Source: Escherichia coli 042 (GTDB lineage: Bacteria; Pseudomonadota; Gammaproteobacteria; Enterobacterales; Enterobacteriaceae). From it: DNA of 64,000 bases. The position numbers were made by a program, and so were the translations under genes. The stretch lies in NCBI RefSeq assembly GCF_000027125.1, contig NC_017626.1, one strand, 5' to 3'. Each line of letters begins with the position of its first letter. The first letter of the stretch is position 1. The notes beneath the pieces are model-generated. The model was not told where the DNA came from and searched no databases. It saw only the letters and a list, made by a program, of their open reading frames with translations. Positions 1,919 through 12,929 of this stretch are shown one piece after another.

Positions 1919-3277
1919 TTAGCCTCCGTTGCGTTTTTGCAGTAATTCCTGATGGCGACGTTTTTCGCCAATCATCACAACAATCAACAAGATAACCGCC
2001 AGAATGCTGCCGCCAATCATTACCATAAAGCCGCCATCCCAGCCGAAGAAGTCCACGGTGTAGCCAACAATCGCGCTCGCCGCCACCGAACCGCCCAGGT
2101 AACCAAACAGCCCGGTAAAGCCCGCTGCCGTACCTGCCGCTTTTTTCGGTGCCAGTTCCAGCGCATGCAGACCGATCAACATCACAGGACCGTAAATCAG
2201 GAAGCCGATAACAATCATACAGATCATATCGACGTTCGGATTGCCCGCCGGGTTCATCCAGTAAACGATAGTCGCGATGGTCACCAGTGTCATAAAGAAG
2301 ACGCCGGTGGCCCCACGGTTACCGCGGAAGACTTTGTCCGACATCCAGCCGCACAGCAGGGTGCCCGGAATGCCCGCATACTCATAGAAGAAGTAGGCCC
2401 AGGAGGATTTATCCAGCGCGAAGTGTTTCACCTCTTTCAGATAAGTCGGTGACCAGTCGAGGATGCCGTAACGCAGCAGATAAACGAACACGTTGGCGAT
2501 AGCGATGTACCACAGCAGTTTGTTCGGCAGCACGTACTGCATGAAGATTTGCTTCGCAGTCAGCTCCTGTTCCGCTTTTTCGTTATAGTCGTCCGGATAA
2601 TCATTTTTGTACTCTTCGATCGGCGGCAGGCCACAGGATTGCGGGGTATCGCGCATCATCGCAAAGGCGAACAGTGCCACCAGAATGGCGCAGAATGCGG
2701 GCATATAGAGCGCGGCGTGCCAGTCATTGAACCAGGCCATCCCCAGCAGGAACAGCAGCGGCGGAATACCACCACCGACGTTGTGCGCACAGTTCCATAC
2801 TGACACAATGCCGCCACGTTCTTTCTGCGACCACCAGTGCACCATAGTACGACCGCACGGCGGCCATCCCATCCCCTGGAACCAACCGCAGAGGAACAGC
2901 AGCACAAACATCACCGCAATGCTCGACGTCGCCCAGGGCACAAAGCCCATAAAAAGCATCACCGCCGCCGCCAGAATCAAACCTGCGGGCAGGAAAACGC
3001 GCGGATTCGAGCGATCCGACACCGAGCCCATGATGAATTTCGAAAATCCATAAGCAATCGAGATCCCCGAAAGGGCAAAACCTAAATCACCGCGTGAGAA
3101 GCCCTGCTCGACCAGATAAGGCATAGCGAGCGCAAAGTTCTTACGAACCAAATAGTAAGCAGCATAGCCAAAGAATATCCCCAGGAAAATTTGCCAGCGC
3201 AATCGACGATAAGTCGGATCGATCTCCGCGGCAGGTAAGCGCGCTTTGTGTGGCGCTGGTTTAAAAATACTCAACAT
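1919..3277 (-). CDS. glpT: glycerol-3-phosphate transporter (MFS)
   Basis: 452-aa ORF recognised as GlpT, 4 bp upstream of glpQ (glpTQ operon). Confidence 0.95.
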
Positions 3278-3384
3278 TGATAGCCTCCGTGGCCCGTGGT
3301 CTTATTTATGATTAACAGCCTGATTCAGTGGGAGAACCTGCCGTTTCTTGAGTTGCCGCGATGTTAAGAAAACATTCATAAATT

Positions 3385-3408
3385 AAATGTGAATTACCGC
3401 ACACATTA
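3385..3408. promoter_or_regulatory. CRP-like binding site (TGTGA-N6-GCACA)
   Basis: Sequence aaaTGTGAattaccGCACAcatta resembles the CRP consensus TGTGA-N6-TCACA. Confidence 0.4.
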
Positions 3409-3425
3409 TTAAATACGATGGGTTA

Positions 3426-3495
3426 AATGTTCAGAATGACGCATGAAATCACGTTTCACTTTCGAATTATGAGCGAATATGCGCGAAATCAAACA
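3426..3495. promoter_or_regulatory. GlpR operator-like tandem half-sites upstream of glpA
   Basis: Repeated TTCGAA / GCGAA / CGCGAAAT motifs resembling GlpR operator half-sites, just upstream of the glpA start. Confidence 0.35.
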
Positions 3496-3549
3496 ATTCA
3501 TGTTTTTACTATGGCTAAATGGTAAAAAACGAACTTCAGAGGGATAACA

Positions 3550-7614
<4,065 letters not shown>

Positions 7615-11107: not shown

Positions 11108-12316
11108 TCAGGCTGTCGCCTGAATCATTTCGGTGGGTTCCTGCTTCAACGAGCGGCCTGACTGCACCATCTCTCCACAGGCAAGAACGGCGTGCCCCGC
11201 CGCTAAAATGTTACGAGCGCCATTTACATCGGCGTTCGCTGTATATCCACATACCTGGCATCTGAATTGACTTTGTGACAGGCGATTTTCTTTCGCAGTA
11301 TGACCACAGCACGCGCAACGCTGGCTTGTGTACGCTGGCGGAACAGCAAGCAACTGACCGCCACTCCAGAGCTGCTTGTACTCAAGCTGGCGGCGCATTT
11401 CATACCAGCCCTGATCCAGTATCGAACGGTTTAAACCTGATTTTGCCCGGACATTGCGCCCCGGCTGGCTGAGCGTACCCGCTGCTGACTTTGACATGTT
11501 GCTGACCTTCAAATCCTCAATGACTATCATTGCGTGGTTTTTGCTGACGGTCGTTGTGACTTTGTGAAGGTAGTCCCTGCGGATATTTGCGATACGGGAA
11601 TGCAGTCGCTGTATTTTGCGTTTCTGCTTCTGCCAGTTGTTGCTGAATTTGACCCTGCGGCTTAACTGTCGCTGAAGTCTCGCCAGCTTCTTCTGGTTTT
11701 TCTGAAAACTGTTTACAGGCTCAAAGACTGTGCCATCTGACAGCGTGGCGAGTTTAGCCACGCCAGCATCCAGCCCGACCATTGATGCTGAAGGGTGAAC
11801 CGGAGTTGATACTTCACTTTCTGTCTGAATACTGATGTACCACTTACCGCAGGACTGGCTGACAGTGACATTTTTTACAACACCCGTGACCTGACGGCTG
11901 TTCCGGTAGCGCATCCAGCCCAGTTTCGGCAGAAAAATACGGCTGTTTTCCTGATCGAGCTTAACGCCCTGCGGATAGCGGAATGCATCATTCTGTCCCC
12001 GCTTTTTGAATCGGGGAAAAGCAGCCCGATTCTGGAAGAAGTTTTTGTAAGCCCGCTCAAGGTCTTTCAGTGACTGTTGCAATGGCTGTGAGGGCGAATC
12101 TTTAAGCCATTGCGTTTCAGTGGCGTTTTTCCACTCAACCAGCCAGGAAGCCATTTTCCCGTAAGGGATGTATTTATTACCGGCCTCATGATTCTCATTC
12201 TGAAGCGCCAGAGCGCGATTGAAAACGAAACGACATGCGCCTGCGAAGCGCCTCATTTCACACTCCTGTTGACCACCTGGTCTTAACTGGAATTTAAATG
12301 CCTGTAATCGTTTCAC
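11108..12316 (-). CDS. tnpB: TnpB (OrfB) RuvC-like RNA-guided nuclease of the IS200/IS605 family
   Basis: 402 aa with RuvC-I GLDAGV, RuvC-II IVIEDL, Ruv[12 protein letters not shown] and a zinc finger CACCGH...CQVCG. Confidence 0.9.
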
Positions 12317-12323
12317 AGGTCAA

Positions 12324-12929
12324 ATGATACTTTGGTCTATGAAAAAAGAAACCGATATCCGGCGTGGAAGGCATTGTGTTTTCCTGATGCATGTTCACCT
12401 GGTCTTTGTCACCAAATACCGACGCCAGATTTTTGACCATGACGCGACAGAAAAACTACGCACTTACTTTTCAAATGTATGTGCTGATTTTGAAGCTGAA
12501 CTGGTTGAAATGGATGGCGAACCAGATCACGTCCATTTGTTAATTAACTATCCTCCCAAACTGGCGATATCCAGTCTGGTAAACAGCCTCAAAGGCGTAT
12601 CGGGTAGGTTACTGCGACGAGATCGACCAGATATTGCAGTCAGGTATTACTACAAAGGCGTTTTGTGGAGTCCTGGCTATTTTGCCAGTAGCTGCGGAGG
12701 TGCGCCAATATCCGTCATCCGCCAATACATTGAACAACAGCAAACACCTGGTCAGGTGGAAAACCGCGCCTTATATCCCCGCCCTGAAGGACGGGGTTTT
12801 ACAGCGCACTGGATAAAGTCATGGACTCAACAACCTCAATCCAGCCATGCTCACTGGCGATGTCCTGGCCGTTTAACCAACGGCGCAGCATATTCAGTGC
12901 CATCATTGCGCACACTTCCTGACGGATAG
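12324..12929 (+). CDS. tnpA: IS200-type Y1 (HUH) transposase TnpA; annotated ORF is abnormally long at the 3' end
   Basis: HUH motif HVHLL and the C-terminal WSPGYFASSCGGAPISVIRQYIEQ motif. The ORF reads past the terminal hairpin into the yfaY-antisense flank (201 aa against a typical 140-155 aa). Confidence 0.75.
   Translation: MILWSMKKETDIRRGRHCVFLMHVHLVFVTKYRRQIFDHDATEKLRTYFSNVCADFEAELVEMDGEPDHVHLLINYPPKLAISSLVNSLKGVSGRLLRRDRPDIAVRYYYKGVLWSPGYFASSCGGAPISVIRQYIEQQQTPGQVENRALYPRPEGRGFTAHWIKSWTQQPQSSHAHWRCPGRLTNGAAYSVPSLRTLPDG
12777..12796 (+). repeat. IS terminal imperfect palindrome (tnpA-proximal end)
   Basis: CCCCG-CCCTGAAGGA-CGGGG, sharing the GCCCTGAAG loop with the hairpin at 11073-11094. 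Confidence 0.55.

Follow-up and report, generated by a model that had tools for sequence, protein, structure and literature searches.

Signals for CRP, GlpR, and FNR in the divergent glpTQ/glpABC control region of Escherichia coli

The window analyzed here is a stretch of 64,000 nucleotides (64 kb) from Escherichia coli 042, and all positions are counted from its first nucleotide. Within it, glpT and glpA face away from each other as the first genes of two back-to-back operons; glpQ lies beyond glpT, and glpB and glpC follow glpA, as judged from the open reading frames (ORFs) and the RefSeq annotation. An earlier note on this DNA, made from the sequence alone, had placed a 272-bp regulatory region at 3278-3549 between the divergent glpTQ and glpABC operons, and this is exactly the gap between the ORF ending at 3277 and the ORF starting at 3550. 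The features that we assign to this gap and its borders are listed in Table 1. Of 5,426 complete E. coli genomes, 5,419 contain the control region, and over 3000-3800 the window is 100% identical to several complete genomes, such as that of strain 118UI from urine. In E. coli K-12 MG1655, the corresponding region separates the same genes, is also 272 bp long, and is 96.7% identical to that of the window; subtracting 2,349,097 from an NC_000913.3 coordinate gives the position in the window. The K-12 glpTQ-glpACB control region is reportedly the subject of studies by Larson, Cantwell and van Loo-Bhattacharya (1992, J Biol Chem 267:6114) and by Yang, Gerhardt and Larson (1997, Mol Microbiol 24:511). 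The earlier note had called the arrangement expected biology, and this agrees with the literature: the region is well studied, reviews and RegulonDB-based papers count it among the most heavily regulated in E. coli, and RegulonDB gives glpTQ 21 annotated sites for five factors.

One observation outside the glp locus concerns the stretch between yfaV and yfaY (11108-12749). K-12 presumably carries rhmD and rhmR (yfaW, yfaX) at this position, and the RefSeq genome that matches the window annotates an IS200/IS605-type TnpB (InsQ) together with a truncated tnpA. In this lineage, an insertion-element remnant thus seems to have taken the place of the L-rhamnonate genes.

Table 1. Features of the glpT/glpA control region and its flanking genes. 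Conservation is the mean column conservation over 45 Enterobacteriaceae sequences.
Feature	Position	Strand	Basis	Conservation
glpT, glycerol-3-phosphate/phosphate antiporter, first gene of glpTQ	1919-3277	-	ORF; NCBIfam NF008433 equivalog, E = 3e-294; RefSeq annotation	
Divergent glpT/glpA control region, 272 bp, 38% G+C	3278-3549	.	gap between both ORFs	
glpT ribosome-binding region, GGAGG on minus strand	3280-3292	-	conservation, 45 Enterobacteriaceae sequences	0.88
glpT leader	3293-3353			0.50
glpT transcription start glpTp1, 77-nt leader	3354	-	5' RACE and 454 sequencing, PMC2760140 supplement	
glpT -10 block	3357-3369			0.78
glpT -10 hexamer TAACAT (box ttttCTTAACATcgcg)	3361-3366	-	PMC2760140 supplement	
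GlpR-like operator AATGTGAATTACCGCACACA, 14/20, overlapping the CRP site	3386-3405	.	consensus score; independent matrix rank 5	
CRP site core TGTGA-N6-GCACA, TGTGAattaccGCACA	3388-3403 (22-mer 3385-3406)	.	best consensus match; published footprint on EHEC orthologue; conservation	
CRP left half-site	3388-3392			0.92
CRP spacer	3393-3398			0.65
CRP right half-site	3399-3403			0.94
Near-continuous conserved stretch	3425-3497			0.77-0.90
GlpR-like operator AATGTTCAGAATGACGCATG, 12/20	3426-3445	.	consensus score; aligned Enterobacter sequence is the palindrome AATGCGCAAAAAAGCGCATG	
Literal CGAA-containing short repeat TTCGAAttatgagCGAAtatgcgCGAA	3461-3487	+	TRF and motif positions	
Best GlpR-like operator TATGCGCGAAATCAAACAAT, 15/20	3478-3497	.	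consensus score; independent matrix rank 2; conservation	
FNR box ATGCG-CGAA-ATCAA, 7/10, overlapping GlpR operator 3478-3497	3479-3492	.	FNR(D154A) DNase I footprint, PMC5352689	
Block upstream of glpA	3510-3535			0.86
Putative extended -10 TGgCTAAAT (TGGCTAAAT) of an FNR-dependent glpA promoter, implied start about 3527	3512-3520	+	comparative spacing	
GlpR-like operator AATGGTAAAAAACGAACTTC, 14/20, overlapping the putative glpA -10 and start	3518-3537	.	consensus score; conservation of block 3510-3535	
glpA Shine-Dalgarno-like AGAGGGA	3537-3543	+	read from sequence, relative to ATG at 3550	
glpA, anaerobic glycerol-3-phosphate dehydrogenase subunit A, first gene of glpABC	3550-5178	+	ORF; NCBIfam NF008313 equivalog, E = 0; RefSeq annotation	

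For the comparison across genera, a degenerate DNA pattern for the FAD-binding motif of GlpA retrieved 120 loci from reference genomes. From these, 44 Enterobacteriaceae gaps were aligned to the window, and conservation was averaged by column over the resulting 45 sequences (Table 1).

The CRP-like site that the earlier note had reported as TGTGA-N6-GCACA at 3388-3405 is present, with TGTGA, the spacer ATTACC, and GCACA in this order; the motif stands, while its end lies at 3403 and had been set 2 nt too far. It matches TGTGA-N6-TCACA at 9 of 10 positions. As a bare 16-mer with at most one mismatch, such a core is found twice in the 64-kb window against 1.97 expected, which corresponds to chance level. 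The 22-mer at 3385-3406, which agrees with the CRP consensus AAATGTGATCTAGATCACATTT at 15 of 22 positions, reaches a score unmatched at any other position of the 64 kb. The sole other 9/10 core in the window, TGTTAAAAGCCTCACA at 31032-31047, is located between menF (29722-31017) and elaB (31096-31401). Among the 44 other species, about 38 retain a 9/10 core, combined with about 12 different spacers. At the glpT promoter of enterohemorrhagic E. coli (EHEC), CRP-cAMP protects AATGTGTGCGGCAATTCACATT from DNase I; Kurabayashi et al. 2017 (PMC5352689) located this footprint at -30 to -52, where it overlaps the -35 region. The protected sequence is the reverse complement of positions 3386-3407 of the window with one difference in the spacer; the 22-mer of EHEC O157:H7 is thus present here, with GGTAAT in place of GGCAAT on the glpT strand.

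The glpT transcription start, listed as the known glpTp1, was mapped at -77 from the ATG together with the -10 box cTTAACAT (Mendoza-Vargas et al. 2009, PMC2760140 supplement), and the corresponding position, 3354, agrees with the numbering in PMC5352689. As the center of the CRP core is 3395.5, the site lies at -41.5 from this start, which is the class II position. Another candidate glpT promoter, the sigma-70 scan match TGAACA-17-AATAAT on the minus strand (3433-3405), scores no more than shuffles give and would set the CRP site at +1; it was rejected. A second CRP site, expected around 3437-3453 (TGACG-N7-TCACG), was also discarded, as it scores below 7/10 at canonical spacing.

Scoring for GlpR was carried out with the 20-bp consensus WATGTTCGWTAWCGAACATW, reportedly that of Zhao et al. 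1994. As positive controls, it recovers in K-12 glpD a 20/20 match and, directly adjoining it in tandem, a 14/20 site, and in K-12 glpFK sites with 15, 14, and 14 matches out of 20. A consensus search that allowed up to three mismatches gave no match. Natural GlpR operators being too degenerate for such a search, match counts were instead compared with those in 5000 dinucleotide shuffles of the 272 bp; the degeneracy of GlpR operators is likewise remarked on in the Reg-Seq paper. Three 20-mers with at least 14 matches occur in the 272 bp against a shuffle mean of 0.18 (P = 0.0006), and at a threshold of at least 12 matches there is no enrichment (P = 0.33). When the whole 64-kb window is divided into 272-bp tiles, two or more sites of at least 14/20 are present in the control region only. 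A matrix derived from the glpD and glpFK operators alone ranks the site at 3478 second and that at 3386 fifth in the window. The individual sites considered here score 12 to 15 out of 20, and any one of them alone could be due to chance. As a group, they lie well above the background with which the earlier note had proposed comparing them.

The GlpR-like sites are arranged as two pairs, 3386/3426 and 3478/3518. The members of each pair are 40 bp apart, the 20-mers in between have low scores, and the register of one pair is shifted by 12 bp relative to the other. The operators at 3386 and 3426 share the direct repeat TTAAATGT at this 40-bp spacing. The earlier note had located the GlpR-like sequences at 3426-3495; their GlpR-likeness holds up, and they also extend beyond this interval on both sides, to 3386-3405 and 3518-3537. 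Like the sites here, the glpD and glpFK arrays consist of degenerate 20-bp palindromes related to TATGTTCGATAACGAACATT; in those arrays, the palindromes are placed in phase. The strong sites here are spaced by 40 bp compared with 20 bp in those arrays, and the best score is 15/20, whereas glpD contains a perfect 20/20 operator. In glpFK, as here, GlpR operators overlap CRP sites. Reviews and the Reg-Seq paper give four to eight GlpR sites per glp operon, and reviews describe several operators in this region to which GlpR binds, as well as its release by glycerol-3-phosphate (citing Larson 1992 and Yang 1997).

The best of the four, at 3478-3497, is kept in the alignment: 43 of the 44 other sequences score 15 to 18 out of 20 there, and the remaining one carries a 1-nt deletion; the column conservation of this site is 0.90. 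The positions of all four operators are those that we infer from consensus scores and conservation.

Operators inside glpA are implied by a title in the literature; the best candidate, a 13/20 match at 3924-3943, was not supported, as it is without synonymous-site constraint; a scan of 3550-4500 revealed no other match above 12/20. This sequence, AGCGCGCATTATCGAACCTG, is the third-best match to the glpD/glpFK matrix in the window and may represent either chance or an E. coli-specific internal operator. A separate observation on glpA is that positions 3859-3879 form its second most constrained 7-codon window at synonymous sites (codon entropy of 0.61 against a mean of 1.17, 32 species). Stronger constraint is seen only in the glpA/glpB overlap (5155-5175), and 3859-3879 contains no GlpR-like match.

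The earlier note had also described tandem CGAA-containing repeats across 3426-3495. A literal repeat of this kind is confined to 3461-3487, about one-third of that interval. CGAA is present on the plus strand at 3463, 3474, 3484, and 3530, and TTCG at 3461; Tandem Repeats Finder (TRF) reports 3463-3487 with a period of 10, 2.4 copies, and a score of 36. The remainder of 3426-3495 contains GlpR-like sequence without CGAA, such as the ATGTTCA half-site at 3427-3433.

Inside the CGAA stretch lies a signal that is absent from the earlier note, an FNR box. A variant of FNR, FNR(D154A), protects about 70 bp of the EHEC glpT promoter, including TTGAT-TTCG-CGCAT (PMC5352689). This sequence is the reverse complement of 3479-3492, so that the FNR box is common to EHEC O157:H7 and the window. 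In that study the box is treated solely as a distant element of glpT, at -123 to -136, and glpA is not mentioned. In E. coli the box matches TTGAT-N4-ATCAA at 7 of 10 positions, a level met about once per 190 bp of the window and thus not above chance. The homologous box reaches 9/10 in Yersinia, Serratia, Hafnia, Brenneria, Buttiauxella, and Cedecea, where it reads TTGTTCCTTATCAA or TTGCTCGATATCAA. In Yersinia, Serratia, and Brenneria (loci L016, L025, L040, L053, and L074), the glpT-glpA gap is much longer, roughly 310-590 bp, and a near-perfect CRP-type palindrome, GTGATnnnnATCAC, lies exactly 60 bp upstream of the FNR box, compared with 90 bp for the CRP site in E. coli.

The presence of this box raises the question of which protein the CGAA stretch serves. 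It is possible, although we consider it somewhat doubtful, that 3461-3492 serves chiefly as FNR box and glpA promoter and not as an array of GlpR operators, and that the protein label given to it in the earlier note is wrong for this part. The footprint speaks for this, and so does the fact that 20-mers starting at 3446-3477 score at most 11/20 for GlpR. In addition, the operator at 3478-3497 departs invariantly from the GlpR consensus by CAAAC in place of CGAAC, and this change gives rise to a perfect FNR half-site, ATCAA, in all species. Nevertheless, the same operator is the best GlpR match in the region, and it is better still in Enterobacter (TATGTTCGAAATCAAACAAA, 17/20). Activator sites that overlap GlpR operators have also been described for glpFK. 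The FNR and GlpR readings of the stretch may both hold.

Downstream of the FNR box, the comparison across genera points to a promoter for glpA. The module ATCA[AC]-N-TG[GT][CT][CT]NA[AT]T is present in 55 loci, and in 51 of these the distance from the ATCAA half-site to TGnCYnAAT is exactly 19 nt; the module occurs in 0.26% of shuffled upstream regions. If TGnCYnAAT is read as an extended -10 element, the FNR box falls at -41.5, the standard position for class II activation by FNR, and transcription of glpA would start near 3527. From this comparative geometry, we infer a glpA promoter with an FNR-activated layout. No glpA start site was found in four genome-wide data sets. Larson et al. in 1992 are said to have placed the glpT and glpA starts 132 bp apart, which would put the glpA start at about 3486 rather than 3527. 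There may thus be two glpA promoters, or the promoter predicted at 3527 may be wrong.

Conservation of the block upstream of glpA could in principle reflect RNA rather than DNA. A structured leader element of the glpA mRNA in 3503-3535, with UUUUUACUAU and AUGGUAAAAA as the arms of a hairpin, would fit the inverted repeat 3503-3512/3519-3528, whose arms are 90% complementary and pair in the minimum-free-energy fold. We regard such an element as very improbable, as the fold of the glpA leader has a z-score of only -1.43, the hairpin has a conserved right arm but a variable left arm, and Citrobacter breaks pairs without compensation (for example, C-G to A-A). An Rfam search of the leader region gave no match. 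Leader structure was also dismissed for the region as a whole, as neither the glpA nor the glpT leader folds better than shuffles (z = -1.4 and -1.2).

With regard to other DNA-binding proteins, a chromatin immunoprecipitation (ChIP) peak of FNR at glpT/glpA is listed by Myers et al. 2013 solely for a strain without H-NS and StpA. The same study reports an H-NS ChIP-chip peak in aerobic culture at 2350232-2350761 in older K-12 coordinates. By offset arithmetic, this peak corresponds to about 3113-3642 of the window and spans the whole AT-rich control region. A possible IHF site at 3487-3498 matches its consensus in relaxed form only and is not claimed.

A more far-reaching proposal, which we put forward as speculative and on balance improbable, is that 3479-3492 is a dual-specificity site for GlpR and FNR, placed at -41.5 relative to an extended -10 promoter of glpABC that depends on FNR, is deeply conserved, and starts at about 3527. 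The invariant CAAAC half-site would then represent a compromise, maintained by selection for both proteins across the Enterobacterales, and this promoter would be distinct from any CRP-dependent glpA start further upstream.

Nine substitutions distinguish the region from that of K-12 (3331, 3396, 3416, 3420-3424, and 3434). From 3435 through the glpA ATG the two are identical, and consequently they share the operators at 3478 and 3518, the FNR box, and the putative glpA promoter. They also agree in the CRP half-sites; the difference at 3396 (A here, G in K-12) falls in the CRP spacer, that at 3331 in the glpT leader, and that at 3434 (G for A) inside the 3426 operator. The other six, at 3416 and 3420-3424, lie in the spacer that separates the CRP site from the 3426 operator. 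The leader, the CRP spacer, and 3416-3424, in which substitutions from K-12 are found, are poorly conserved among Enterobacteriaceae in the case of 3416-3424 and have the values given in Table 1 for the others. All nine differences leave the conserved core bases untouched. A further observation is that seven of the nine differences, among them GGGTT for TTACA (3420-3424), fall within 3416-3424 and at 3434, and that this is the stretch of the control region in which Escherichia departs most from other genera.

We interpret the region as the known glpTQ/glpABC divergent promoter-operator region, in which three signals act on two back-to-back operons (probability of about 0.93). The catabolite and glycerol-3-phosphate repressor control of both operons that had been proposed from the sequence is supported by the CRP footprint (PMC5352689), the -41.5 position, the GlpR scores, and reviews. 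That the CRP, GlpR, and FNR motifs are instead chance matches in an AT-rich intergenic spacer without regulatory function is a reading that we find scarcely credible. It can draw on the chance frequency of the 16-mer CRP core, on the lack of enrichment of GlpR-like matches at the lower threshold, and on how common 7/10 FNR boxes are. Against it, the CRP 22-mer is unique in the window, the count of GlpR-like sites at the higher threshold far exceeds that of shuffles, the binding sites are kept across genera while the glpT leader varies, and footprints and a mapped start have been published.

Under the interpretation as a functional divergent control region, the three signals would act as follows. 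Class II activation is an established mechanism of CRP. cAMP-CRP bound at 3388-3403, at -41.5 from the glpT start, would activate glpTQ in this manner. GlpR would act through degenerate 20-bp operators, with the pair 3386-3405/3426-3445 covering the CRP site together with upstream glpT promoter sequence, and the pair 3478-3497/3518-3537 lying over the predicted glpA promoter, where one operator would cover the FNR site and the other the -10 element and start. When glycerol-3-phosphate is absent, GlpR would occlude CRP, FNR, and RNA polymerase, and glycerol-3-phosphate would release it. FNR on 3479-3492, located 19 nt upstream of TGnCTAAAT, would convey the oxygen signal to the glpA promoter starting at about 3527.

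The region, a textbook case of dense combinatorial control, is already known and carries little weight as a discovery. What is mildly new is comparative evidence, drawn from sequence, that would place the footprinted FNR box geometrically in a conserved glpA promoter, where it may double as a GlpR operator. Expression of glpT determines the uptake of fosfomycin (PMC5352689 and reviews). Since all conserved core bases are kept in this uropathogen-type allele, regulation of the two operons, and with it the CRP- and FNR-dependent susceptibility to fosfomycin, should resemble that of K-12 and EHEC.
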